NCBI GenBank assembly: GCA_001790815.1
Contig: MGDU01000001.1
Coordinates: forward strand, 2,982-66,981
Direction: 5' to 3'
DNA: 64,000 nucleotides
DNA from: Candidatus Uhrbacteria bacterium RIFCSPHIGHO2_02_FULL_46_47
GTDB lineage: Bacteria > Patescibacteriota > Patescibacteriia > GWA2-47-26
Positions 3,367-57,182 of this stretch are shown here, one piece after another. The translations under genes were made by a program, and so were the position numbers. The notes under the pieces are model-generated. The model did not search any database. It saw nothing but the letters and a program-made list of their open reading frames with translations, and was not told the DNA's origin. Each line of letters begins with the position of its first letter. Positions within the stretch are counted from its first letter, which is position 1.

Positions 3367-4179
3367 TTAAAGAGGCAAGGGCATGGTGTGGAAGCGCGCA
3401 GTCCCATCTAACCGTTGCTGTAAAATCTTTTCCACAAACTGAAGTTGTTCCAGCGTGTTGATACCCAGCCCTTCTTGAGGATCATCCAGCAGGACCTCCT
3501 CCACGGTTTTTCCCTCCGCAAGCGCAAGGGCCACCACATCGGTCAGATAGTATTCTCCTTGCGCATTAGTGCGCTTGAGTTGCGGAAGAGTAGCCCATAG
3601 CCAGGCGGTCTTGAACAGATAGTAGCCGGGGTTAACCGTGGTAATGGCACGCTCCTGCGCACTTGCGTCGCGGCTTTCCACAATGTGCGCAATGCGGCCG
3701 TGCCCATTGCGCACGATACGGCCGTACGCTTCAAAAAACGTAAACCAATCTTCAAAATGCGAGAGCCGTAAAGTGGTAAGGGTGATATCGGCGCGCGCGG
3801 ACAAGTGATGCGCAACCAGCGCGTCAATGGTGCGCGCGGAAACCAACGGATGATCGCCATAGAGCACGAGCACATGATCATAGCGCATGAGTTTTTCTTT
3901 AGCCGCCAGCACCGCATGACCGGTCCCAAGCTGCGATTCTTGTATAGCATAATCGCACCCTGCGCCAATGCGGTCCCGAATAATATAAAGATCCGGCGCG
4001 ATAACGATTATCGGCTTTGATTGTACCACACTCCCTTTGATGTTTTCCAAAAGATGGGTAAGGAGCGGACGGCCTAACAGCGGAGTCAGCACTTTGGGCT
4101 GCTGCGTGTTGGCGTGCATGCGCTTGCCCTTGCCGGCGGCAAGGATGACAATGCCGATATTTTTTAAAGGGTTGACCAT
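3367..4179 (-). CDS. sugar-phosphate nucleotidyltransferase (GlmU N-terminal-domain-like)
   Basis: ILAAGKGKRM nucleotide-binding motif, YGDHPLV; 270 aa with no acetyltransferase repeat domain. Confidence 0.6.
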   Translation of the reverse strand: MVNPLKNIGIVILAAGKGKRMHANTQQPKVLTPLLGRPLLTHLLENIKGSVVQSKPIIVIAPDLYIIRDRIGAGCDYAIQESQLGTGHAVLAAKEKLMRYDHVLVLYGDHPLVSARTIDALVAHHLSARADITLTTLRLSHFEDWFTFFEAYGRIVRNGHGRIAHIVESRDASAQERAITTVNPGYYLFKTAWLWATLPQLKRTNAQGEYYLTDVVALALAEGKTVEEVLLDDPQEGLGINTLEQLQFVEKILQQRLDGTARFHTMPLPL

Positions 4180-4904
4180 AGCTTTTCAAAAATCAACTGC
4201 TGGGTGCGTGCGATATTATGATCCTCAACTACAACGCCAAGCGGCATCGACGCGCGGTCAATCGCGATGTGCGCGGTCTTCGTGCCGTAAATTAAAGTAT
4301 AGGCCGGCGATCCCGCGTCTTTAGTCAGCCATTTGCGTTGCGAAAGCATATCTTCTTTTCCTCCTTCTCCAAGTGCAATAACTTTTACCTCAATACCTCG
4401 TTTAATTCGTTCCTTGGTGAATTGCGGAAAACTTTTATGCAATACGTCTCGTAAATTTGAAGAAGAGTAAACATAGTATTCCTTTTGCCGCTCGCCGCCA
4501 AGTGTTGCCAGCACATCTTGCAGAATATTTTTTACTCCGGAAAGTCCCTCGTAATACCGTGCAACTGGCTTATCGCCGCCGCGATTATACATGGATTGAA
4601 GCTCCGGGATAATACTTTGAATTTTTTCGCGCAACCGACTCATTTCTTCAAGCCGTCCATCCAAATGGCGCTCAAGTTTCATTGGATCTTCCGCCACAAA
4701 ATATTGTTTCTTTTCTTTATGATAGTAAACCACAAGACCTTGTTTCATCAGGTGTTTTAAAATATCATAAGTCGTGCCGCGGTTTATTCCGGCTGATTGC
4801 GCTATTTTACGTACTGACGCAGGGCCAAGACTAAGCAAAATCAAATACACGCGGATCTCTTTTTCATCAAAACCTAATTTTTTGAGAATTTGAACTACAT
4901 CCAT
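4164..4904 (-). CDS. TrmB-family sugar-responsive transcriptional regulator
   Basis: N-terminal wHTH (LGFDEKEIRVYLILLSLGPASVRKIAQSAGINRGTTYDILKHL) plus TrmB C-terminal domain; start moved to internal Met (MDVVQ); divergent from pfk. Confidence 0.6.
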   Translation of the reverse strand: MDVVQILKKLGFDEKEIRVYLILLSLGPASVRKIAQSAGINRGTTYDILKHLMKQGLVVYYHKEKKQYFVAEDPMKLERHLDGRLEEMSRLREKIQSIIPELQSMYNRGGDKPVARYYEGLSGVKNILQDVLATLGGERQKEYYVYSSSNLRDVLHKSFPQFTKERIKRGIEVKVIALGEGGKEDMLSQRKWLTKDAGSPAYTLIYGTKTAHIAIDRASMPLGVVVEDHNIARTQQLIFEKLWSTL

Positions 4905-25710: not shown

Positions 25711-25950
25711 GGAGGGGTGCTCCGAATGGCTAACCCCGCACCAGAGCAGAGCTCGATGCGGGGCATGGGAACCGGCGGTGTCCCGTATGGAGAGCGGAGG
25801 GTTGTGCCGAACGGCTAAGGCACTGGTCTCGAAAACCAGCGGGCGCAAGCCCTTGCAGGTTCGAATCCTGCACCCTCCGCTCTCTCGTGCGGGATTTCGA
25901 AAACCGGCGCTCGCAAGGGCATGTGGGTTCGACTCCCACCCCCTCCGCCA
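25711..25950 (+). ncRNA. outer tRNA-like structure whose halves flank tRNA-Ser (split/intron-containing or rearranged second tRNA-Ser copy?)
   Basis: 5' GGAGGGGUGCUCCGAAUGGCUAA is homologous to the tRNA-Ser 5' end; 3' ..UUCGAAAACCGG-CGCUCGCAAGGGCAU-GUGGGUUCGACUCCCAC-CCCCUCC-G-CCA is homologous to the tRNA-Ser 3' half and pairs with the 5' GGAGGGG as an acceptor stem; encoded CCA. Confidence 0.3.
25796..25879 (+). tRNA. tRNA-Ser (anticodon CGA), class II with long variable arm
   Basis: GGAGGGU/ACCCUCC acceptor, U8, anticodon loop CUCGAAA, variable arm CGGGCGCAAGCCCUU, T arm GCAGGUUCGAAUCCUGC. Confidence 0.75.
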
Positions 25951-26065
25951 GAAAGGATTTTGCAAGGATTCGCCACGCTCCGCGTGGCGTGAATGAAAGC
26001 GCGCGGTTCTGAATCAGGAAGTGTGATAATTTGCTAAAAATGATCCGCCTCACTAATAAGCGAAT

Positions 26066-26515
26066 ATGATCAATCCACACTATATTAGTGGTTTAATCGA
26101 TGGTGAGGGAACCTTCACCTATACAAAAAATGGAGGAAGGGTTTATCCCTATTTTGCCATCAAGCTTAATGTAAAAGATCTGCCTTTACTTGAAAAAATT
26201 AAAGAATTTTTTGGTTGTGGAGAGATATACCATAGTCCTGCGCGAACATATACTATGAACGGTTTCACATATACTTCCGGAGAATTAGTAAACTTAAAGG
26301 TTTTTCGTATGGATGAGTTGATGAAGCTGGTGTGGCATTTTTTGGATTACCCTTTGGAAGGTAAAAAAGCAGAAGCCTTCAAAATTTGGAAAGAAATGGT
26401 TATGATTAAAACTGTGAATCGAAAAGAAGACTGGCCAAAACTACATGATCTTGCAGAAAAGCTTACTTTGGCCAATGGAGGAAAAAAGAAAAGACCTCGC
26501 AAGGGCAAGACTTGA
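26066..26515 (+). CDS. free-standing LAGLIDADG homing endonuclease (single motif, 149 aa)
   Basis: YISGLIDGEGTF motif; basic C-terminal tail. Confidence 0.7.
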   Translation: MINPHYISGLIDGEGTFTYTKNGGRVYPYFAIKLNVKDLPLLEKIKEFFGCGEIYHSPARTYTMNGFTYTSGELVNLKVFRMDELMKLVWHFLDYPLEGKKAEAFKIWKEMVMIKTVNRKEDWPKLHDLAEKLTLANGGKKKRPRKGKT

Positions 26516-26792
26516 CAGATTTTTGGCCCTCCATTATACTATTGCCAGCTTTCGTCACTGCACGGAAGAAAAGGAGGAAACCGGCAACATGTCGGAATAA
26601 AGCTCATGTGGAGTAAGCCATGTACCTGGCACTGCATGAGCGCCTGAACCTATAACAGAAGAGGTACATTCTTCTGGGCTCCACAGGATGGAGCATAACC
26701 CACGAAAGTGGGAAAAGCGCCCGAACTTTCCGGGCAAATCGGAAGCGAGGCCTAGGTAGACCCTAGAAAACTCGCTACCACAAGACACTGCT

Positions 26793-27746
26793 ATGGCTCA
26801 AAGCAGAAGGTCTTGGTCCAGGGGAAGAGCCAGAACAACAGGAGAAAAGACCTTGAACACGGTCAAGCGGACAGAGTTTCACCCCGACAAGTTCGCCGTG
26901 CTTGCGGCGATCGACCCGAACCTGCGGATCGAGCAGATTCGCGGGGTCTGCGTGGCGCCCGACGGCCAGAACATCGCCCTCTTCACGACGGAGGCGGGCC
27001 AGCGGATCGGCGAGAAGCGCGCGCTCGGCGTGTACGAGTACGGCAAGGACCACGCCGTCGACACGTTCACCGAGGTGGAGGGCGTGCAGTTGCTCTCCGG
27101 CACTCCGGGCATCCAGAACAACCCCGCGCGCGCGAGCATCGTCAAGGGCCTGAAGGGGCTGTTCGTGCGCGAGGACAAGAACGTGCTCGTGTGCAGCAAG
27201 CCCACGGGCGTGATCGGCTACTACCTCTACTCGAGCCCGACGGCGGAGCCGATCGACCTCACGACGCAGGACCTGGACTTCACCGAGGTGGTGTTCCTGC
27301 CCAAGCCCCGTGGCTACGTGGCTCGCGAGGCAAGGAGCAACTGCCTGTGGTTCCTGCCATTCGCAACCGCCAAGACGGGCACGGCCGGGCGGGTCGCCTG
27401 GAACATGAGCAACGCGCTACCCGGCGTCTCGGCGATCATGTCGCTACCGCCGCGGATCCAGAACAACCGCGCGGTGCTCTGCTCGACGCTCGAAGGCGAT
27501 CGGCAGTGCAGCGACACGCTCAACCTGTCGAGCATCGGAAGCAGTCAGATCACGAGCGTCGCGCGCGAGGGCGATGTCAACAGCATCGTCTTCCGCTGCT
27601 TCGCGAGCCACGAGGTCGCGATCATCGAGGTGGGCGTCGGGGCCAAGACGCTGGAACCCGGGACCTGGCAGGTTCCGACGGCTGATCTGCCGGAGCTCTT
27701 CGGCAAGGCAGGCGCCGCGCTCGTCTCGGCTTCGGCTCCGCTCTAG
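26793..27746 (+). CDS. hypothetical protein in a 68%-GC island
   Basis: Only frame with balanced composition; other overlapping ORFs are Arg/Ala-rich GC artefacts. Confidence 0.4.
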   Translation: MAQSRRSWSRGRARTTGEKTLNTVKRTEFHPDKFAVLAAIDPNLRIEQIRGVCVAPDGQNIALFTTEAGQRIGEKRALGVYEYGKDHAVDTFTEVEGVQLLSGTPGIQNNPARASIVKGLKGLFVREDKNVLVCSKPTGVIGYYLYSSPTAEPIDLTTQDLDFTEVVFLPKPRGYVAREARSNCLWFLPFATAKTGTAGRVAWNMSNALPGVSAIMSLPPRIQNNRAVLCSTLEGDRQCSDTLNLSSIGSSQITSVAREGDVNSIVFRCFASHEVAIIEVGVGAKTLEPGTWQVPTADLPELFGKAGAALVSASAPL

Positions 27747-27916
27747 TCGCCAGCGACGGCGACAAGCCCTGCCCGTGAGTTGGTAGGGAGCACCTTCCAA
27801 GTACATCAGTACGAGTGAATTCCAGGCCAAGCTGGTCTTGGTCTGAGAGTTTCCGCCGGCACCGACGCGCAAGCGCACGGGCCGGTCTTTTAATTTTGTG
27901 ATAAGATAAGCATACT

Positions 27917-32198: not shown

Positions 32199-32969
32199 CT
32201 ATGCGTCCTGTGGATGAGTCTGCGCAGCGGCGCGGCGGACGCGCAGCCCTTGGAGCCAACGCTCGCGCAGGCTTGGCGGGGCAAAGGCGCTGATCTGCTC
32301 GAGCCGCTCGCGCGCTTCCTGCCCGATCTTGGACTTGGTGCGATCACGCGACTCCTTGAGCCAGTCAATCGTCTCGTAGACGCCGACGCCCAAGTGGTCA
32401 AGTCCCAGCACCATGCTTTCAAAGTCGGCCACGCTTGAGAAACGCGCCACGATCGGCAGTAGCCGCAGGACCGGAAGCGCAAGCCCATGTCCCCACTTAT
32501 CGCGAATCCACACGACCTCCAGTCCGTTCCAGGCGTGTGACACGGTCCAGAAGCAGGCGGGCGCCATGCCCACGACCTTGCCCGGCTTGCGAAACCAGCC
32601 GCCGTGGCGGACTTGGATGTAGACCGCGGGCTGCGGATAGGGCAGAGCCGTGTGGATGTGCTCGGTCCCGTCTTGGCCGAGAAAGAGATAGAGGATTCGA
32701 CCGATGATGTTGCGCCCGACGAACAGCCACAGCCCAGTCGTCATAATCAGGAAGATGAGGATGAGGACCAGGAATACGACCACCGTCAGAAAGGCCACGG
32801 ACCAGTAGTGATGCGCCTGGAAATCGACTACTAACCAGTAGAACGTGGAGCCCAGGAGGACGACGAACAGCACGTAGAGCAGAATATACATGGACTCGCG
32901 CCAGAGCATCGGGCCCACGGTTTTATCCTGAAGACACTCCTCACACCTCTTGTATTTCGTTGTCATCAT
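32199..32969 (-). CDS. hypothetical membrane protein in a ~62%-GC block
   Basis: Two or three N-terminal TM helices; other-frame ORFs here are GC artefacts. Confidence 0.4.
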   Translation of the reverse strand: MMTTKYKRCEECLQDKTVGPMLWRESMYILLYVLFVVLLGSTFYWLVVDFQAHHYWSVAFLTVVVFLVLILIFLIMTTGLWLFVGRNIIGRILYLFLGQDGTEHIHTALPYPQPAVYIQVRHGGWFRKPGKVVGMAPACFWTVSHAWNGLEVVWIRDKWGHGLALPVLRLLPIVARFSSVADFESMVLGLDHLGVGVYETIDWLKESRDRTKSKIGQEARERLEQISAFAPPSLRERWLQGLRVRRAAAQTHPQDA

Positions 32970-33162
32970 GCCGAACCTCCTAGCTCATAGGCCCTTGTCC
33001 CACGAGCGGAAGTGCCAAGGCCGGCCATCTTGCACCATGCAAGCAGCCCGTCCAGGGCATTTTTGAAGAACTAGATTGATTAAAACAAAAAAAGCGTGTT
33101 TTGTCAATACTTCGACATGAATAGGGGGAAGCGGTATAATTAGTGTGTTAAGTAAAAGCAAT

Positions 33163-39680: not shown

Positions 39681-39985
39681 GGTAACCCTGTAGCAAGCTA
39701 CAGGGAATTGCAAGATTAAAAATTTTCTTTCCCCCAAAATGCGAAATCGTGAATTCGTTTTTGCCCCCAAAATCCAATACCAAGGAGATGACCCCACATC
39801 CTCAAGCCGAAGCATTTTCGCTTCGGCTTTTCTCTTTCCTAAGTTCCTGTGGTATAATGATTTTGATAAGCATCAAGGATATGCGCCACAATTATAAAAT
39901 AAAAACTTGGTCCGGCTATATTTGATTAGGATACTTTTCTAGTCAGCATTATTTTGCCACCACTAACCTATCTAATCTAATCATT

Positions 39986-40681
39986 ATGAAATACTTTCAT
40001 CAATTCATAACAAAGAAAAATGTGCTCTTTATAACCATTTTTGTGATTCTTGGATTTATCGCTTTACAGATTCCAGTAGCGCAACTGGCGGGATCGAAGG
40101 TCAAGTTTACCATCTATGACGCGTTTGCGCCTGTCGCAGGCTCGTTTATCGGAAGTATTCCAGGCGCAATAGCCGTCTTTCTTATGCAGTTTTTTAATTT
40201 TTTGGTTCACGGAGCGCAAATTGAAGACGCAGGAACGGTTATTCGCTTCTTCCCCCTGCTTTTTGCCGTGCTTTATTTCGCAAAGAAAGGAAAAGTAAAT
40301 ATCATCATACCCGTGCTCGCCATCGCGGCATTCATCGCGCATCCAATCGGTCGGACGGTCTGGTACTTCTCGATTTTCTGGCTTATCCCCATTGCCGCGC
40401 ATTTCTTCCGCGACCGGTTTCTCCTTGTCCGCGCGCTCGGGGCCACATTCACCGCGCACGCGGTTGGAGGCGCGTTGTGGATTTGGGTTTTTGCGCTTCC
40501 GGCCCCGGTTTGGAATTCCCTTATTCCCGTCGTTATCACAGAACGGCTGCTCTTTGCGCTTGGCATCAGCGGATCGTTTATTCTCGTAAATAACCTTCTT
40601 GGTTTCTTAGAAAAAAAACATCTTCTAAACATCGGCTTTTACATTGATCAGAAATATCTCGCTCCCATTCTTCGCCGTTAA
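39986..40681 (+). CDS. polytopic membrane protein (possible ECF-type substrate-capture component)
   Basis: 6 predicted TM helices, 231 aa; weak family assignment. Confidence 0.4.
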   Translation: MKYFHQFITKKNVLFITIFVILGFIALQIPVAQLAGSKVKFTIYDAFAPVAGSFIGSIPGAIAVFLMQFFNFLVHGAQIEDAGTVIRFFPLLFAVLYFAKKGKVNIIIPVLAIAAFIAHPIGRTVWYFSIFWLIPIAAHFFRDRFLLVRALGATFTAHAVGGALWIWVFALPAPVWNSLIPVVITERLLFALGISGSFILVNNLLGFLEKKHLLNIGFYIDQKYLAPILRR

Positions 40682-40685
40682 CAAA

Positions 40686-41228
40686 ATGCGCCCCCAACAT
40701 CTTCTACAACGTAAAACGCGTTTTATCGCGTTCGTTGCCGCAAGCATTGATGGACGCATTTCACTGTCAGAAAAGACTTTGCCGCGATGGACGAGTAAGG
40801 AAGATTGGCGATTTTTGGAACGTTCACTTTCGCGCGCGGATGCCGTTGTTGTCGGCCGTAATACCTACGCAGCGGCCGCGAAGCGATTACGCAAACGAAA
40901 TACGTTTGTTCTCTCAAACCGCTTGAAAGCGATGGCGCGCAGGGGAAGTGTAACATTCGTTAATCCAGCGAACGTTGATCTAGCCTCCTTGCTTGCAAAA
41001 TATAAGACAGTGGCCGTACTCGGTGGTGGAACGGTATACCGCTTCATGTTGGAAAGTGGACTTCTGGACGAGATTTTTATTACTGTTGAGCCGCTCATCT
41101 TCGGTCACGGAAAGGAGATGTTTGTCGGCGGCACTGTAACAACACGAGTTAGTTTGCTGTCTGTAAAACGGCTCAATCGCGCCGGCACGCTCTTGCTTCA
41201 CTATCAGATTAACCATCAACAACTATGA
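40686..41228 (+). CDS. RibD C-terminal-domain / DHFR-like reductase family protein
   Basis: FVAASIDGRISL and VLGGGTVYRF motifs. Confidence 0.55.
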   Translation: MRPQHLLQRKTRFIAFVAASIDGRISLSEKTLPRWTSKEDWRFLERSLSRADAVVVGRNTYAAAAKRLRKRNTFVLSNRLKAMARRGSVTFVNPANVDLASLLAKYKTVAVLGGGTVYRFMLESGLLDEIFITVEPLIFGHGKEMFVGGTVTTRVSLLSVKRLNRAGTLLLHYQINHQQL

Positions 41229-41935
41229 TCATCCGACCAATTAAAACGCATGTTTTTCAAGAGGGTGACGATTTGTTTGCTTTCATTACGGACTACTTCA
41301 AAAAGCTTCCAGAAAAATCCGTAGTTGTCATTACTTCCAAAATCGTCGCCCTTGCGGAAAGACGAACGGCTATCGCAGAAAATGCGCAGATGAAAGAGAA
41401 ACTGATCCGCGCAGAAAGCGAGTTTGCCATTCCCACTAAATACGTTTGGCTCACAGTTAAGGATGGAATGGTCATGGCTTCTGCTGGAATTGACGAGTCA
41501 AACGCAAACGGCAAGCTCATTCTTCTGCCAAAAGACAGTTTTAAAACTTCTCGCTTTCTGCGCAATAAATTGCGAGAGCATTATGACGTGAAACATCTCG
41601 GCGTTCTGATTACCGACAGCCGTATAATACCGCTTCGCGTCGGCGTGACCGGCTTCGCTCTCGGATATGCTGGTTTTCGTGGTGTGAAAGACTATCGCGG
41701 AACGCCGGATATTTTCGGGAGAAAATTCAAATTTTCTCGCACCGATGTTGCCGATAGTCTCGCAACAGCCGCAACTTGCGTCATGGGCGAAGGAAACGAA
41801 CAGCAACCTTTGGCAATTATTGAAAAGGCACCGATTGAATTTTGTGATAAAATTCACCGCAAGGAATTGCATATCGACATTCAGGAAGATATGTACCGAC
41901 CTCTCTTTTCAAAATTGCCCAAACCGAAAAGATAA
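41225..41935 (+). CDS. CofE-like (F420-0:gamma-glutamyl ligase family, PF01996-like) protein
   Basis: VVVITSKIVALAE...ASAGID...LGVLITDS pattern; 4-bp overlap with the reductase gene. Confidence 0.5.
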   Translation: MIIRPIKTHVFQEGDDLFAFITDYFKKLPEKSVVVITSKIVALAERRTAIAENAQMKEKLIRAESEFAIPTKYVWLTVKDGMVMASAGIDESNANGKLILLPKDSFKTSRFLRNKLREHYDVKHLGVLITDSRIIPLRVGVTGFALGYAGFRGVKDYRGTPDIFGRKFKFSRTDVADSLATAATCVMGEGNEQQPLAIIEKAPIEFCDKIHRKELHIDIQEDMYRPLFSKLPKPKR

Positions 41936-42275
41936 TTTACTGCATTTTCACTTCGTTCAAATGCAGTATTCTTGAATTAGTCCGAACGCATTTCGCCGCC
42001 TGCGGCGGCGAGGGAGTCCCCTCGCGAAATTCCGAAATCTCGGCTCCGCCGCACCGCTGACAATTTTCCCGCCACATATTTTAAACTTTTGGAAGGCGGG
42101 ATTGCGTTTTGTAACTTCGCTTCGCTCAGACAAAACGGGAACAAGTTTTTCTTTGGTGGCAAATTCTTTTATGAAAATTCTTAATTCAAAAATTAAAAAA
42201 GAAAGCGGGCGGGACACTTATCGTGCCACGCCCGTGATTGTGCGGTTGCCATCTTCGTACCGCCGCGGTTATGAG

Positions 42276-42695
42276 TCAGCGATGACTCTGGTCGGCGTCG
42301 AGGACCGCTTGGCTTCCGCCGATGAACAGAGCGTGGAAGTAGCTGTCGCGGAGCGCTTCCTTGATTTCGTCCAGATTCGGCGCGTCCTCGTAGCCCTGCG
42401 GCGTCAGAATGACCCGCTGATCGTTCACCGGCTTGCCATGGAAGACGTGGTTTCCGTCTGTGAGGCCGATGTACCAGCCGCGGTCGAACTCGCACTCCTT
42501 CAGTGCACAGGTGTTGGGGCCTCCGGTGGGAACTGCCGTCGCCTTGACTGGGGGGTCGAAGCGATAATACTTCCCACGAACCAGTTTCTGCTGCGCCGCG
42601 TTGTTGGCGACGACATGGTCTGCCGTCATTGTGTCTCTCATCGGAAACTGCATGGCGTTTTGCCTCCTCTCAAGGTTCAGGTTTCGTCGCCGCAA
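42276..42695 (-). CDS. hypothetical protein (GC-rich), copy 1 of the tandemly duplicated gene
   Basis: Most protein-like frame in the repeat unit; likely start at internal MQFPMRD. Confidence 0.4.
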   Translation of the reverse strand: MRRRNLNLERRQNAMQFPMRDTMTADHVVANNAAQQKLVRGKYYRFDPPVKATAVPTGGPNTCALKECEFDRGWYIGLTDGNHVFHGKPVNDQRVILTPQGYEDAPNLDEIKEALRDSYFHALFIGGSQAVLDADQSHR

Positions 42696-43195
42696 CGTGC
42701 AGGCAACGACTATCGGTCTATGATTCCGATAATGTTCAATGTTAGCATACTACGCCATAAAAGTCAAGAGGCGGCAAGTGCCGCCTCTTGGGAGTATTTG
42801 AAAAATTTTTCTTTTCTGCTTCTACAAAATATGGTTCCCGCTCAAATCTTATTTGAGCGAGGCTCGCTCAGATTTCTGAGCGGCGAGCCGACCTGCGCTT
42901 CGCCGAGGCTTCGGCAAGGCGAGTGTTTTTCTACGGGTTCTTTTGCGGTTTTGATTCGTGCGGCGGAGCCGCACCGCTGACAATTTTCCCGCCACATATT
43001 TTAAACTTTTGGAAGGCGGGATTGCGTTTTGTAACTTCGCTTCGCTCAGACAAAACGGGAACAAGTTTTTCTTTGGTGGCAAATTCTTTTATGAAAATTC
43101 TTAATTCAAAAATTAAAAAAGAAAGCGGGCGGGACACTTATCGTGCCACGCCCGTGATTGTGCGGTTGCCATCTTCGTACCGCCGCGGTTATGAG

Positions 43196-43615
43196 TCAGC
43201 GATGACTCTGGTCGGCGTCGAGGACCGCTTGGCTTCCGCCGATGAACAGAGCGTGGAAGTAGCTGTCGCGGAGCGCTTCCTTGATTTCGTCCAGATTCGG
43301 CGCGTCCTCGTAGCCCTGCGGCGTCAGAATGACCCGCTGATCGTTCACCGGCTTGCCATGGAAGACGTGGTTTCCGTCTGTGAGGCCGATGTACCAGCCG
43401 CGGTCGAACTCGCACTCCTTCAGTGCACAGGTGTTGGGGCCTCCGGTGGGAACTGCCGTCGCCTTGACTGGGGGGTCGAAGCGATAATACTTCCCACGAA
43501 CCAGTTTCTGCTGCGCCGCGTTGTTGGCGACGACATGGTCTGCCGTCATTGTGTCTCTCATCGGAAACTGCATGGCGTTTTGCCTCCTCTCAAGGTTCAG
43601 GTTTCGTCGCCGCAA
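43196..43615 (-). CDS. hypothetical protein, copy 2 (100% identical)
   Basis: Identical translation to 42276..42695. Confidence 0.4.
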   Translation of the reverse strand: MRRRNLNLERRQNAMQFPMRDTMTADHVVANNAAQQKLVRGKYYRFDPPVKATAVPTGGPNTCALKECEFDRGWYIGLTDGNHVFHGKPVNDQRVILTPQGYEDAPNLDEIKEALRDSYFHALFIGGSQAVLDADQSHR

Positions 43616-44151
43616 CGTGCAGGCAACGACTATCGGTCTATGATTCCGATAATGTTCAATGTTAGCATACTACGCCATAAAAGTCAAGAGGCGGCAAGTG
43701 CCGCCTCTTGGGAGTATTTGAAAAATTTTTCTTTTCTGCTTCTACAAAATATGGTTCCCGCTCAAATCTTATTTGAGCGAGGCTCGCTCAGATTTCTGAG
43801 CGGCGAGCCGACCTGCGCTTCGCCGAGGCTTCGGCAAGGCGAGTGTTTTTCTACGGGTTCTTTTGCGGTTTTGATTCGTGCGGCGGAGCCGCACCGCTGA
43901 CAATTTTCCCGCCACATATTTTAAACTTTTGGAAGGCGGGATTGCGTTTTGTAACTTCGCTTCGCTCAGACAAAACGGGAACAAGTTTTTCCCTGCCTGC
44001 CGGCAGGCAGGTTTGGCGGCATTCAATCCAAGAATTCGCGAAGCGAATATTTAAAGAATATAGGATTTTAAAAATGATGACAACAACGACAATGAGAAAA
44101 GAGAAACAGGCCGAACGCTCTTACGAACGCTGGCCTGTTGGTTGTGGTTTC

Positions 44152-44643
44152 TCACGGCAGTTCTCCGTTCAGGATTTCCTGCCACGAGTTCACCTGCTTG
44201 ACCCGGTTGAGGAAGCGAGCGTATCGCCGCACTTCATCGGGACGTGGCTGAAAGAGATAGAGCGTGCTCACCGTGGCGAGGTTGCCCAAGATTTCCAATC
44301 GGTCGTCAACGAAGTGGGTGATGCCCAACTCCTCGCAGATACTGGCCTTCTCGTGTCTCTCACGGCAGAAGCGAACACGCTCGCGTCCGATTCCGGTGAG
44401 GTCGTAGAAGCGGTGATGGTCGAGCCATTGCAGGGTTTTGTCCTGCACGCGCTGACCGCACTTCGAGACAAGGAATACCTTGTCGCCGAACCGCTTCTCC
44501 ACGAGCTGGCGCAGAGCGTCGAAGACGCCCGGCACTGCCGTAGTCCGCAGGTAATTGTCAGTGAAGAACGAGGTATCGGTTCCGTCGTTCACTCGGTTGA
44601 TGATGACGCCGCCGATATCGACGCCAAGCGTTTCTGCATTCAA
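44152..44643 (-). CDS. hypothetical HAD-like / 5'-nucleotidase-like protein (GC-rich)
   Basis: N-terminal GVDIGGVII resembles HAD motif I; the opposite-strand ORF 43843..44679 is rejected. Confidence 0.35.
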   Translation of the reverse strand: MNAETLGVDIGGVIINRVNDGTDTSFFTDNYLRTTAVPGVFDALRQLVEKRFGDKVFLVSKCGQRVQDKTLQWLDHHRFYDLTGIGRERVRFCRERHEKASICEELGITHFVDDRLEILGNLATVSTLYLFQPRPDEVRRYARFLNRVKQVNSWQEILNGELP

Positions 44644-44878
44644 CGTTCTGTCCTCCTATCAAGGTACGTTTTAACCTAAGCACCATGCCTAGATTTGAAA
44701 GCAATCATAGCATATCCAGTCTAATACGTCAAGAAGCGGCGTTTGGCCGCTTCTTGGAAAGAATCAGTAGGATTAAAAAATTTTCTTCCCCCAAAATTAA
44801 AATATGGTTCCCGCTCAAATCTTATTTGAGCGAGGCTCGCTCAGATTTCTGAGCGGCAAGCCGATGTTTTTTCCTAAT

Positions 44879-44950
44879 TGCGCCCGGAGGGAATCGAACC
44901 CCCACCAACAGGTTCGAAGCCTGTTATGATATCCATTTCACCACGGGCGC
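44879..44950 (-). tRNA. tRNA-Arg (anticodon TCG)
   Basis: Reverse complement GCGCCCGUGGUGAAAUGGAUAUCAUAACAGGCUUCGAACCUGUUGGUGGGGGUUCGAUUCCCUCCGGGCGCA; anticodon loop CUUCGAA. Confidence 0.7.
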
Positions 44951-44963
44951 GTTACAATGTTTT

Positions 44964-45662
44964 TTAAATTTTCTCTTCCCACTTGCTTTTGAGAGCCGCT
45001 TCAGCCGCGGACATCTGCGCTTCTTGTTTGGAAGTGCCAAAGCCCTCGGCAATCATAATGTCGCCGATGTAAACCCCGATTTTAAATTGTTTGGCATGAT
45101 CCGGACCAATCTCGGAGAGTACGCGGTAAGAAGGAGTCATTGCCATTTTTTCCTGCACTAGTTCTTGAAAATGGCTCTTGGCGTCCACATATAATCCGTA
45201 CTCAATAATATGCGGAAGTTTTGTAAGAACTTCGCGTTTGGTAAAAGTTGTGGCAACTTCCATCCCCTGATCAAGATAAATCGCGCCAATGACCGCTTCA
45301 ATCGCGTTGGCCAAAATAATCTGACGCGCTTTGGATCCGGTGTCTTTGGCTTCTCCGCGCGACAAAAATAAATAATCATCCAAACCAATGTCCTTAGCAA
45401 TTTCCGCCATCATTTTCGCGTTAACCAGCGCCGCGCGCCAGTTGGTAAGCTCTCCTTCGGGATTGGGGTAGTGATTGTATAGGTGTTCGGTAACGGCAAG
45501 CTCCAGAACCGCGTCGCCCAGAAATTCCAGCCGTTCGTTTTGCGGAAGATGGAATGCGGGATTCTCATTAAGATAAGAGCGATGGACAAGCGCTTGCTTT
45601 AAAAGGTCCTGATTTTTAAATGTGACACCAAGGGTGTGTTCAAGTTTTGACCAATCTTTCAT
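44964..45662 (-). CDS. rnc: ribonuclease III
   Basis: ERLEFLGDAVLELAVTEHLY RNase III signature plus C-terminal dsRBD. Confidence 0.85.
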   Translation of the reverse strand: MKDWSKLEHTLGVTFKNQDLLKQALVHRSYLNENPAFHLPQNERLEFLGDAVLELAVTEHLYNHYPNPEGELTNWRAALVNAKMMAEIAKDIGLDDYLFLSRGEAKDTGSKARQIILANAIEAVIGAIYLDQGMEVATTFTKREVLTKLPHIIEYGLYVDAKSHFQELVQEKMAMTPSYRVLSEIGPDHAKQFKIGVYIGDIMIAEGFGTSKQEAQMSAAEAALKSKWEEKI

Positions 45663-46382: not shown

Positions 46383-46496
46383 ATAAATATGATACGAATC
46401 TACAAATTATTATACGAATCAACTAATATACGAATCCACGAATAATTCGTATATTCGGAGATTCGTCAGATATTCGCTGATTCGTATCCTACTATA

Positions 46497-55605: not shown

Positions 55606-55765
55606 ATTTTATCTGTGGCCACGTTGTTCCAAGTGAATCGTCGTTGGGTACGATAAACCGAGAACAACGCCAAACCAGGTAAATTTAAGATTAAATGAGT
55701 ATATCACAACATCAATATTGTGGCAAGAGCGCCATACTGTTATACTAGAATGTGCGACACAAAGT

Positions 55766-56800
55766 ATGACACTTGATACATTAGTGCGACAATTTTTGGA
55801 ATATATTGAGGTGGAACGAGGACGGAGCAAAAGGACGATTGAAAATTACCAGTTTTATCTAGGGCGGTTTTTGATGTGGTCTGCGGATCATGGGGTAAAG
55901 AGTCCGGCTGGCATAACGCAAGATACAGTGCGCGAGTATCGGCTGTGGCTGAATCGCTACAGGGCTAAGCCCTTAAAGCATACAGGGCTTAGCCCTGACG
56001 AGGGACTTAAAAAAAATACTCAAAACTATCATCTTATTGCATTGCGCGCGTTTTTAAAATATCTTTCCAAGCGCGATATCAAAACCCTTGTGCCGGAAAA
56101 AATTGAATTGGGCAAAATGCCTACGCGGCAAGTGGATTTTCTTGAGGCAGAAGATTTGGAACGGATGCTTAAGGCGCCGCTTATCCCCTCACCTGACCTG
56201 CGGTCTTCCTCTCCCGAGGGGGTCGAAGACGGGCCGAGCGGGCGTAGGCCCCGGGGAGGGCAGGGAGAGGGCAGTATTGTGCAACTTCGCGACAAGGCAA
56301 TTTTGGAAATGTTGTTTTCAACAGGCCTGCGCGTGTCCGAGCTTGCTGGACTCAAACGTACGGATGTGAATCCAAAAAAAGAAGAGTTTACCGTGCGCGG
56401 TAAAGGAAGCAAATTACGCGTGGTCTTTATGTCGCCGGGAGCGCGGGAGTGGCTTAAAAAATATTTGGACGCGCGCGGTGATATGGCGCCATATTTGTTT
56501 GTCCGCCATGATAAAGCCCGTCTCAAAAGCGGAGAAGGCGGCGCGCTTACGCCGCGTTCAATACAAAGAATTGTGGAGAAGTATGCCAAAGCCGCGGGAA
56601 TTACCAAACGCATTTCCCCGCACACCCTCCGACACACATTCGCTACTGACCTTTTGCGCAATGGCGCCGATATTCGCAGTGTGCAAGCTTTGCTTGGCCA
56701 TTCCTCCATTACCACCACCCAAATCTACACTCATGTTACCGACACCCAGCTTCGCGAGGTGCACAAGGCATTTCATGCACGGCAAAGAGCAGAGGATTGA
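55766..56800 (+). CDS. tyrosine recombinase XerC/XerD family, carrying an in-frame repeat insertion
   Basis: HTLRHTFATDLLRNGADIRSVQALLGHSSITTTQIYTHV catalytic region; insertion at 56188-56285. Confidence 0.8.
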   Translation: MTLDTLVRQFLEYIEVERGRSKRTIENYQFYLGRFLMWSADHGVKSPAGITQDTVREYRLWLNRYRAKPLKHTGLSPDEGLKKNTQNYHLIALRAFLKYLSKRDIKTLVPEKIELGKMPTRQVDFLEAEDLERMLKAPLIPSPDLRSSSPEGVEDGPSGRRPRGGQGEGSIVQLRDKAILEMLFSTGLRVSELAGLKRTDVNPKKEEFTVRGKGSKLRVVFMSPGAREWLKKYLDARGDMAPYLFVRHDKARLKSGEGGALTPRSIQRIVEKYAKAAGITKRISPHTLRHTFATDLLRNGADIRSVQALLGHSSITTTQIYTHVTDTQLREVHKAFHARQRAED

Positions 56801-56939
56801 CTTTTGTAAAAATTTATGATAGTTTATAGTCAACTTCGCCCCTGTAGCCCCGAAGCACTTTATGGTCGGGGAGCCGACCTCCGACGCGGTGGTCGGAGCA
56901 TGTGGAGCGTCGGCTTTCAATGGACCCCGCACCTTCTGC

Positions 56940-57012
56940 GCCCCCATAGCTCAATGGATAGAGCAGTGCTCTTCTAAGGCATTGATGTACGTTCGACTCG
57001 TGCTGGGGGCAG
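56940..57012 (+). tRNA. tRNA-Arg (anticodon TCT)
   Basis: GCCCCCA/UGGGGGC acceptor, U8, anticodon loop CUUCUAA; embedded in a 14-bp inverted repeat (ccccgcaccttctg ... cagagaaggtgcgggg). Confidence 0.65.
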
Positions 57013-57053
57013 AGAAGGTGCGGGGCAGATAGAACTGTGAATTTCTCAATAGT

Positions 57054-57129
57054 GGGGTGCCTATGGTGTAATGGCAGCACAGAGCCCTGTGGAGGCTTTA
57101 GTTCGGGTTCGAATCCCGATAGGCACCCC
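57054..57129 (+). tRNA. tRNA-His (anticodon GTG) with encoded G-1
   Basis: Extra 5' G pairing with C73; anticodon loop CUGUGGA; T arm GGGUUCGAAUCCC. Confidence 0.7.
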
Positions 57130-57182
57130 ATTGTTGAGAAAGAAACGAGGCCAAAAGGCCTCGTTTTCTGTTTTCCCGCAAT

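Follow-up and report, generated by a model that had tools for sequence, protein, structure and literature searches.

A probable 920-bp tandem duplication of a horizontally exchanged one-gene cassette behind tRNA-Arg(TCG) in Candidatus Uhrbacteria

Introduction

The 64-kb window, that is, the whole stretch of Candidatus Uhrbacteria DNA analysed here, contains a perfect tandem repeat with a 920-bp unit, which is probably an ordinary copy-number variant of a horizontally exchanged one-gene cassette, lying in a mosaic locus at a tRNA gene and duplicated by recombination between 104-bp direct repeats (J1). Some assemblies of the population have one copy and one has two, so that the assemblies, if not the population itself, are polymorphic. 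Downstream of tRNA-Arg(TCG), a 5-kb region would be a mosaic of horizontally exchanged modules, in which A and B appear to be self-contained one-gene cassettes. In each of them a hairpin merges into a sigma-70-type promoter, which is followed by the gene and a terminator, and a J1-J2-H spacer lies between the two.

The tandem repeat and its one-copy alleles

A sequence-only reading of this DNA had described identical open reading frame (ORF) pairs offset by 920 bp, a 2.1-copy tandem repeat and a junction sequence that recurs three times. Base-by-base comparison bears this out, in that s[i] = s[i+920] is true for all i from 42048 to 43071, and an independent repeat search gave equal spacing; the repeat has 2.11 copies of the unit at 42048-43991 (1944 bp) with no mismatch, and TRF missed it only through its maximum period of 500. 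The unit consists of one cassette (42157-42805) and a 271-nt hairpin-rich spacer. J1, which like the other spacer features below has no strand, is found at 42048-42151, where it forms the CofE-side border of the array, at 42968-43071, and at 43888-43991, where it adjoins cassette B. The middle copy occurs only in the duplicated form and carries the J2-J1-terminator junction, which is specific to that form or to a 920-bp circle. J2 itself (42892-42967, second copy 43812-43887) is the central part of the spacer between cassettes.

A single unit between 100% identical flanks is found in further assemblies of this population, namely GCA_001791295.1 and two ENA assemblies (L001, L002 and L004), with a perfect 104-bp J1 on both sides of gene A (the equivalents of 42048-42151 and 43888-43991). 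Direct repeats thus mark precisely where the duplicated unit begins and ends, as expected of duplication by homologous recombination. The exact gene A protein occurs in three NCBI assemblies of this population: one genome has it twice, as identical proteins with accessions two apart (OGL69291 and OGL69293), at least one (GCA_001791295.1) has it once, and accessions are single elsewhere. No tandem copies of gene A or B were found among all other loci fetched. Copy number is read here from assemblies, and an assembler could have walked a graph cycle, so that the true number may be one plus a circle, two, or more. Since the copies are identical, the duplication event would be very recent, which supports the earlier view of recent amplification in this respect; the accompanying caution about assembly collapse or expansion was apt too, as the public assemblies differ by exactly one unit.

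In minus-strand order the one-copy allele reads tRNA, H', B, J1-J2-H, A, J1 and flank, with J1 copies bracketing A. Because J1 is already present on both sides, the duplication is the expected product of recombination between the J1 copies. It could have arisen by unequal homologous recombination between J1 copies on sister chromosomes, or a 920-bp circle could have looped out and re-inserted at J1; as either route gives J1-X-J1-X-J1, either would produce the observed 2.11-copy repeat. The idea of an element undergoing amplification is right as to recency, but no element-encoded machinery is needed, because the 104-bp direct repeats of the one-copy allele suffice.

An assembly artefact, in which the chromosome has one copy and the second comes from an assembler or curation step traversing a repeat-induced graph cycle, is unlikely, although several observations agree with it: the copies do not differ at a single base, one copy is present in at least three other assemblies of this sequence, 920 bp is beyond short-read span, and every junction but the internal-J1 one is common to both forms. 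However, the J2-J1-terminator junction requires reads that run through the 104-bp J1 into A-unit sequence at either end, it is also present in a second assembly made by a different pipeline (the 1727-bp contig L005/L018, JGI 3300002529), and the repeat region has no Ns or scaffold gaps.

Less probable still is a single chromosomal copy whose X-J1-X junction derives from a free 920-bp circle (cassette A and spacer) cut out at J1, so that the "duplication" would be the trace of an element in the course of active excision. The unit has no replication or recombination gene, a non-replicating form would be scarce in a metagenome, and two chromosomal copies are annotated in one NCBI genome. On the other hand, the junction is just as diagnostic of a circle, the JGI contig lies entirely within the repeat with a terminal redundancy of 807 bp, and cultures with tycheposons hold circular intermediates alongside tandem junctions (bioRxiv 10.1101/2020.12.28.424599). 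Many A and B homologues lie on contigs of about 0.7-1.6 kb, which would suit circles, but strain-variable repeats predict short contigs equally well. Duplication of cassette A in the chromosome by recombination at J1 is the preferred and moderately probable explanation.

Cassette A and its gene

Cassette A, the horizontally shared core, is encoded on the minus strand at 42157-42805 (copy 2) and 43077-43725 (copy 1); the two copies are identical and consist of a hairpin with promoter, a structured and conserved leader, a 125-aa gene and a terminator. The minus-strand ORF of 121-139 aa noted earlier in each unit is real (42276-42695 and 43196-43615), but alignment of homologues locates the true ATG start and sets the length to 125 aa (MQFPMRD...), giving gene A at 42276-42653 (copy 2) and 43196-43573 (copy 1). 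The perfect palindrome reported for each unit is the 26-nt CAAGAGGCGGCACTTGCCGCCTCTTG at 42765-42790 and 43685-43710, whose 3' arm enters the -35 of the predicted promoter at 42739-42767 (TTGACT-17-TAACAT, extended -10 TG). The whole palindrome-promoter site (minus strand, 42739-42790, repeated at 43659-43710) scored promoter-like and terminator-like alike, and its fold together with the leader has z = -4.5. On the same strand a terminator hairpin followed by a T run was read from the sequence at 42207-42233, repeated at 43127-43153, and is conserved in L008 and L021.

Cassette A shows 77-90% nucleotide identity to Nealsonbacteria and other CPR contigs with shared end points, including 77% over 649 nt with sharp ends against Nealsonbacteria (L008/L025). 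Gene A has a GC content of 53-64% in hosts of 34-47% GC, and its dN/dS is about 0.1-0.3. Structure prediction, which had been proposed as a check on the duplicated ORF, gave a confident AF2 model (pLDDT 90.5), but the model has no fold match in PDB or BFVD, and there was no match in PDB by sequence and profile search, nor in Pfam, NCBIfam, PHROGs or PADLOC. A profile search against 1.8 billion representatives recovered only 63 relatives, which are small and stand-alone with no informative fusions, and the family comprises about 60 clusters.

Cassette B and its gene

Cassette B (minus strand, 44014-44787), with the duplicated unit on one side and tRNA-Arg(TCG) on the other, consists of a palindrome, a promoter (predicted at 44704-44732, TTGACG-17-TATGAT), a 163-aa gene and a terminator. 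A 20-nt perfect palindrome, CCTGCCTGCCGGCAGGCAGG, with no strand and likewise picked out by reading the letters, is situated at 43992-44011 between J1 and the cassette. Cassette B is 95.1% identical in nucleotides to Niyogibacteria CP066691.1 over 777 nt with sharp boundaries, and for gene B the same comparison gives dS 0.13 and dN/dS 0.15. Gene B has 815 homologues, and all the named ones are from CPR.

Gene B (minus strand, 44152-44643, 163 aa) has 58% GC and a predicted HAD-like or deoxyribonucleotidase-like fold. According to its AF2 model (pLDDT 93.4), the product has a Rossmannoid HAD fold, with Foldseek matches to 3bwv (deoxyribonucleotidase-like, 2.5e-5), 2pke (HAD-like, 6e-4) and the T4 Pnkp phosphatase 5uj0 (E = 0.016). 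Motif I, however, is an invariant D9-I-G11-G12-V13, so that the canonical DxDx(T/V) with both aspartates is absent and Gly stands in place of the second Asp in 24 of 24 aligned members; because of this replacement, HAD-phosphatase catalysis by gene B is uncertain. No match to gene B was found in Pfam, NCBIfam or PADLOC, and PHROGs gave weak matches only (E >= 0.06).

The spacer and the hairpin element H

The J1-J2-H spacer (about 250-271 nt) folds strongly (z = -5), and its imperfect inverted ends pair as GTTCCCG...CGGGAAC. H, consisting of two adjacent related hairpins with CGCTCA...TGAGCG twice, is located at 42826-42891 and 43746-43811, and a third copy with one mismatch, H' (44799-44864), lies directly downstream of tRNA-Arg at a distance of about 14 nt; the two-hairpin element described for each unit and beside the tRNA is thereby confirmed. 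Its fold has z = -3.8 to -5.7, and 100 shuffles gave 0 matches to it. A genome-wide REP-like element was considered and rejected, CGCTCA...TGAGCG being found only at the three H sites in the 64 kb and otherwise only in same-strain contigs. A scan of 41800-45100 with Rfam at E <= 10 returned only the tRNA, and H, J1 and J2 match no known RNA family. J2-like sequence also occurs after gene B in Niyogibacteria L014.

Promoter-like sites number 8 against 1.6 expected; both cassettes have a terminator and a strong promoter-like site that includes an extended -10. The cassette end motifs are, on the left, a T-run with AATCCT/AATACT and hairpin-TTGAC and, on the right, GAATTTGCCRCC.

The tRNA locus

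The tRNA-Arg(TCG) gene (minus strand, 44879-44950) is co-oriented with the cassettes, which lie directly downstream of it as is typical of tRNA-targeting elements, and the array starts about 14 nt away, so the segment does end at a tRNA as had been said. It had also been called a foreign block of about 60% GC; this is true of gene A (60%) and nearly so of gene B (58%), but the whole block has only 53%, while the window has 47.7% and reaches 60-67% elsewhere. The only ORFs in 41936-44878 are the two copies of A and one of B, with no element-encoded integrase; a search for a recombinase in the island and for a second copy of the tRNA-Arg 3' end in the window (up to 3 mismatches) was negative, and the sole tyrosine recombinase of the window, at 55718-56800, is Xer-like and 11 kb away. 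Consequently, the earlier "integrated element" is accurate in that the DNA is horizontally acquired and abuts a tRNA, but it comprises two unrelated one-gene cassettes without their own integrase or tRNA att repeats.

On the other side of the array is a three-gene module on the plus strand (39784-41917) encoding a membrane protein, RibD_C and a CofE-like protein (Pfam), which has 88.7% nucleotide identity over 2135 nt to Taylorbacteria (L049/L050). High identity across CPR is thus seen outside the cassettes as well. CofE synteny did not reveal an empty site, because this module, too, has been shared horizontally and its context differs between lineages.

The cassettes probably arrived as small circles that inserted in the Campbell manner into hairpin-rich sites downstream of tRNA genes, a step that might be catalysed by a host recombinase acting in trans or might proceed by homologous recombination after DNA uptake. 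As to the array ends, the tRNA side has only H and the flank side only J1, with J2 at neither, which does not fit attP x attB. A simple attP x attB model was rejected by eye on the sequence, and so was a model in which J2 is filler from duplicated flanks; J2 has no match on the tRNA side or on the CofE side.

The same cassettes in other CPR genomes

Of about 15 distinct A loci, 5 have a co-oriented tRNA no more than 2.5 kb upstream, and so do 4 of 5 B loci. Long host-specific direct repeats surround the cassettes elsewhere, and some of them are tRNA 3' ends. The repeats are the 26-nt 3' end of tRNA-Leu in L008, about 150-200 nt from the 3' end of tRNA-Ala in L034, 25+34 nt in L030, and 30 nt in L014 together with a tRNA-Leu 3' fragment of roughly 20 nt. 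In L024, cassette A has 30+20-nt inverted repeats around it. A tRNA 3'-end repeat at the far border is accordingly found for these cassettes in L008, L014 and L034, but not at the tRNA-Arg locus.

Comparison with known systems

Neither an integron nor a prophage accounts for the cassettes, and an IS element probably does not either. Integron attC sites have R'' RYYYAAC ... R' GTTRRRY cores and are 57-141 nt long, and integron cassettes are mostly promoterless and expressed from Pc. An integron-like array, in which J1-J2-H is a folded attC-type site and an integron integrase from another part of the genome captured the cassettes, is very improbable: like integron cassettes and CALIN arrays, the locus has co-oriented one-gene cassettes, array-specific, strongly folding repeats between them (here pairing at their ends) and no recombinase of its own, and on the CPR contig L036 a conserved repeat of about 65 nt comes after each of at least six small genes. 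But there is no IntI in the 64 kb (the tyrosine recombinase scores 115.6 on TIGR02249, where the cutoff is 265, and fits Xer models better), the spacer ends do not match attC and have reversed polarity, the 250-270-nt spacer is about twice as long as attC, promoter and terminator are present in every cassette, and partial spacers stand at both array ends.

As regards IS elements, MITEs and transposons, there is no transposase and no consistent short target duplication was seen; the spacer does have imperfect inverted ends, and L024 the inverted repeats named above. Similarity to prophages, phage satellites or plasmids was absent: gene A has no match in IMG/VR, INPHARED or PLSDB, and gene B has a single phage match, to a phage "phosphatase" at 36%.

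The closest parallels lie elsewhere. As in duplication-amplification, the units are head-to-tail and identical, each is as long as the distance from one repeat to the next, 104-bp repeats already flank the gene in the one-copy allele and copy number is polymorphic in the population, but the flanking repeats here are part of a cassette-associated structured spacer and not IS or rRNA copies. For the tRNA-linked tycheposons of Prochlorococcus, tandem-repeat junctions and excised subpopulations have been reported (bioRxiv 10.1101/2020.12.28.424599). Variable modules stacked downstream of a tRNA, tandem junctions, heterogeneous subpopulations, cargo-only integrase-free units and, in L008, L014 and L034, partial tRNA repeats around the same cassettes are features in common. 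In contrast to tycheposons, the units here have one gene and a much smaller size (0.65-1 kb), none of the loci examined contains an integrase or replication module, and the repeats at the tRNA-Arg locus are H and J1, not tRNA fragments. CIMEs and Xer-dependent IMEX (CTX/RS1 arrays) also lack a recombinase on the element, are flanked by direct repeats and are prone to tandem arrays, and the host encodes an Xer-like recombinase; however, no dif-like site was identified and the direct repeats here are long and host-specific.

Biological significance

CPR bacteria have tiny genomes. To our knowledge, few mobile elements have been recognised in them, and no description of such cassettes in CPR was found in the literature. 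It is conceivable, though doubtful, that A and B represent an undescribed class of mobile elements of 0.65-1 kb in CPR/Patescibacteria. Members of such a class may have no recombinase, one gene with its own promoter and terminator, phylum-level transfer and circular excision, and may insert into terminator-like hairpins or downstream of tRNA genes, duplicating 25-200 nt of the host DNA in the process. If so, the 920-bp duplication would be a snapshot of an excision and re-insertion cycle.

The duplication, as a copy-number variant, is in itself routine, and the cassette context is more useful. The duplication would double the dose of gene A, and users of this metagenome-assembled genome (MAG) should be cautious, as assemblies of one population disagree by exactly one 920-bp unit. 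The analysis defines two widespread protein families (A and B). Moreover, one-gene modules with their own expression signals cross phylum-level lineages at up to 95% DNA identity and accumulate behind tRNA genes. Candidate means of this gene flow are a recombinase acting in trans, or natural transformation in combination with homology at hairpins or tRNA genes, and if the pattern is general, it would offer a tractable handle on gene flow in uncultured episymbionts.

Tandem Duplication and Copy Number

An earlier sequence-only reading had described a perfect 920-bp tandem duplication beside tRNA-Arg(TCG), and the analysis confirms it. Every base from 42048 to 43071 matches the base 920 bp further on, so that a perfect repeat of 2.11 copies occupies 42048-43991. 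The 920-bp spacing was also returned by a repeat search of the window, while TRF missed it because of its period limit of 500. The contents claimed for each unit were found as well, namely a minus-strand ORF (gene A, 125 aa, the gene of cassette A), a 26-nt perfect palindrome and H, a 66-nt element of two adjacent related hairpins occurring once per unit, and so was the third copy of H near the tRNA (H', 44799-44864, one mismatch to H). The supposed GC content of about 60% holds for the two genes (60% and 58%) but not for the whole block, which has 53% versus 47.7% in the window; on recalculation, GC is higher still elsewhere in the window. Long spurious plus-strand ORFs (292 and 325 aa) traverse the entire unit.

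The gene A product has 100% sequence identity with a hypothetical protein from Candidatus Uhrbacteria bacterium RIFCSPLOWO2_01_FULL_47_24, and contigs encoding exactly this protein were fetched and aligned against the window. NCBI GCA_001791295.1 and two ENA assemblies have both flanks 100% identical to the window and exactly one unit, in which J1, a direct repeat of 104 bp without mismatch, still lies on either side of gene A (both flanking copies, 42048-42151 and 43888-43991, are kept). A JGI contig of 1727 bp corresponds exactly to 42059-43785 of the window and therefore carries two gene A copies; one NCBI genome also has the identical protein twice (OGL69291 and OGL69293, accession numbers two apart), and two more accessions, OGL76364 and OGL82027, are each single. 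The duplicated form has a single sequence that the one-unit form lacks, the junction with unit sequence on either side of J1, and this junction is found in the JGI contig and in the window. A real chromosomal duplication of the 920-bp unit is rather probable, and it is unlikely that the second copy is an artefact of assembly. The junction alone is equally compatible with a chromosomal tandem or a circle, and copy number needs reads, but its origin from a 920-bp circle is considered quite improbable. The duplication represents a very recent copy-number variant of an ordinary kind, or perhaps an ambiguity of the assembly. The earlier interpretation is upheld in part.

Organization and Expression Signals

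From tRNA-Arg (44879-44950, minus strand, about 14 nt from H'), the array runs along the minus strand through H', cassette B (the unit of gene B, 163 aa), a 20-nt palindrome, a spacer of three successive parts (J1-J2-H), cassette A, J1-J2-H again, the second cassette A, J1 and a unique flank to the stop codon of a convergent CofE-like gene. A palindrome opens each cassette, and its 3' arm leads into the -35 of what looks like a strong promoter, extended -10 included (TTGACT-17-TAACAT in cassette A, TTGACG-17-TATGAT in cassette B); eight promoter-like sites were observed in the region versus 1.6 expected. Because the palindrome scores terminator-like as well as promoter-associated, it may insulate the cassette from transcription upstream. 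In cassette A, the promoter is followed by a leader of about 85 nt with a conserved hairpin, then a Shine-Dalgarno sequence and the 125-aa gene, with a terminator downstream. The leader (42654-42738) retains its hairpin (ATCGG...CCGAT), a GC-rich segment and the Shine-Dalgarno context, AGGAGGCAAAACGCC-ATG, in different lineages (homologous leaders in contigs L008, L019 and L009) and is a possible candidate for a cis-regulatory RNA.

The J1-J2-H spacer folds far beyond shuffled sequence (z = -5.0), its ends being predicted to pair as GTTCCCG...CGGGAAC, and H folded alone gives z = -3.8 to -5.7. The spacer, H and the leader/palindrome elements match no family in an Rfam scan. J2 is recognisably conserved beside gene B in Niyogibacteria, while sequence searches place H in this strain only. 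Upstream of the L32 gene, ATACGAATC / GATTCGTAT repeats are clustered at 46385-46491 in both direct and inverted orientation; L009 (5608-5655 and 7522-7569) and L026, downstream of gene A, have comparable TTCGTAT-rich repeats, which may represent a regulatory or binding motif shared by unrelated CPR loci.

The Two Cassette Proteins

Gene A has 62 close clusters, the source-named ones nearly all from CPR/Patescibacteria, and among 1.8 billion representatives searched with a profile only 63 gene A clusters were found, all small stand-alone proteins. It is under purifying selection (dN/dS about 0.1-0.3) and its AlphaFold model is confident (pLDDT 90.5). No match was found in Pfam, NCBIfam, PHROGs and PADLOC family searches, nor for the fold in PDB or BFVD. 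In L008 and L025 (Nealsonbacteria), gene A (4001-4366) is a pseudogene, its conserved RGWYIG motif being interrupted by an in-frame stop (TAC to TAA); this copy is flanked by tRNA-Leu 3'-end repeats.

Gene B has 815 homologues, every source-named one from CPR, and a confident model (pLDDT 93.4), the predicted fold of which is HAD-like or deoxyribonucleotidase-like on structure comparison. A phage protein annotated as "phosphatase" matches it at 36%, and all 24 aligned members have glycine where HAD motif I has its second aspartate. Antisense ORFs of 195 and 82 aa (43843-44679, plus strand) are annotated over gene B (44152-44643, minus strand) in the public record of this genome, and consequently protein databases lack this strain's real 163-aa product.

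Cassettes as Exchanged Units

Cassette B (44014-44787) and Candidatus Niyogibacteria CP066691.1 share 95.1% DNA identity along 777 nt, with sharp borders and dS of 0.13. For cassette A (42157-42805), Nealsonbacteria contigs give 77% identity along 649 nt, the end points coinciding, and parts of it are 84-90% identical to other contigs. The GC content of gene A is 53-64% within hosts of 34-47%, and for both genes the housekeeping neighbourhoods are quite different from locus to locus. Of about 15 distinct gene A loci, 5 have a co-oriented tRNA gene no more than 2.5 kb upstream, as do 4 of 5 gene B loci, the random expectation being about 5% by our own rough estimate (1-Mb genome, about 45 tRNAs). 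In other genomes, long host-specific direct repeats bracket the cassettes: in L008 they are 26 nt from the 3' end of tRNA-Leu, in L034 about 150-200 nt that begin at the 3' end of tRNA-Ala, in L030 25+34 nt of terminator, and in L014 30 AT-rich nt; L014 additionally has a tRNA-Leu 3' fragment of about 20 nt, and L024 has inverted repeats in place of direct ones. The cassettes are thus discrete, horizontally exchanged units, and their link to tRNA genes and to long flanking repeats is established as well.

L036 (990-4710) has at least six small co-oriented ORFs, gene A among them, each followed by an array-specific conserved terminator-like element of about 65 nt (AACAGCCCGCGAAAAAGCC...ATCGCGGGCTTTTT), an organization like that of a cassette array. 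Small ORFs with a GIY-YIG-type N-terminal motif, by motif reading, in L034 (700-2400) and a weak HNH match in L039 (2236-2930) lie beside or between tRNA genes near cassettes, and the L034 repeat encloses one such ORF together with cassette A; co-transfer of neighbouring cassettes by a homing endonuclease is a possibility.

The adjacent three-gene CofE module (39784-41917), encoding a 231-aa membrane protein, a RibD_C/DHFR-like protein and a member of the CofE-like F420-0:gamma-glutamyl ligase family, has 88.7% DNA identity to Taylorbacteria contigs; since this module is itself shared, the roughly 5 kb downstream of tRNA-Arg form a mosaic of acquired modules. Many CPR lineages have CofE-like proteins at 80-89% identity in differing neighbourhoods, which points to wide exchange of the module among organisms that are not known to make F420.

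Elsewhere in the window, 25796-27900 is a second tRNA-linked insertion site, where tRNA-Ser(CGA) (25796-25880) is followed by a tRNA 3'-half remnant (about 25885-25950, ...GGGTTCGACTCCCACCCCCTCCGCCA), a low-GC ORF (26066-26515) with a LAGLIDADG-like motif (LIDGEGTF), a TTGACA-17-TATACT promoter and a 317-aa ORF (26793-27746, 66% GC) with no Pfam, NCBIfam or PADLOC match. In 32199-33100, a hydrophobic minus-strand ORF of 256 aa (32199-32969, 60-65% GC, no family match) with its own promoter-like site and long leader looks like another GC-rich acquired cassette.

Mechanism and Comparison with Known Systems

Unequal recombination between J1 copies would give J1-X-J1-X-J1 (X, the unit without J1), exactly the observed form, and excision of a 920-bp circle with re-insertion at J1 would give the same product; the duplication was presumably produced in one of these ways. 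The original arrival of the cassettes was probably a Campbell-type insertion of small circles bearing a stretch identical to the target. As the cassettes have no recombinase, insertion would need a host enzyme in trans or homologous recombination after DNA uptake. The sole recombinase seen in the window is a tyrosine recombinase of Xer-like type (55718-56800; 360 aa, immediately upstream of tRNA-Arg(TCT) and tRNA-His within 55718-57130), and no repeat of a tRNA-Arg fragment was found in the window. A simple attP x attB scheme does not fit this array, which has only H next to the tRNA, only J1 on the opposite side and no J2 in either place.

This locus works most like duplication-amplification between direct repeats and stacked tRNA-linked islands such as tycheposons, where both excised subpopulations and junctions of tandem repeats have been reported (bioRxiv 10.1101/2020.12.28.424599). 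The cassettes may also resemble elements of the CIME or IMEX kind, which lack a recombinase of their own and depend on mobilisation in trans. An integron is rejected, because the window has no IntI, the spacer differs from attC in end motifs and length, and the cassettes have their own promoters; so is a prophage or plasmid remnant, gene A having no match in IMG/VR, INPHARED or PLSDB. The locus is probably not an IS element either, no transposase and no consistent short target duplication having been seen. No description of such cassettes in CPR was found in the literature; as one-gene, self-expressed units exchanged between CPR lineages, they amount to a variant of tRNA-linked integrative islands with modest novelty.
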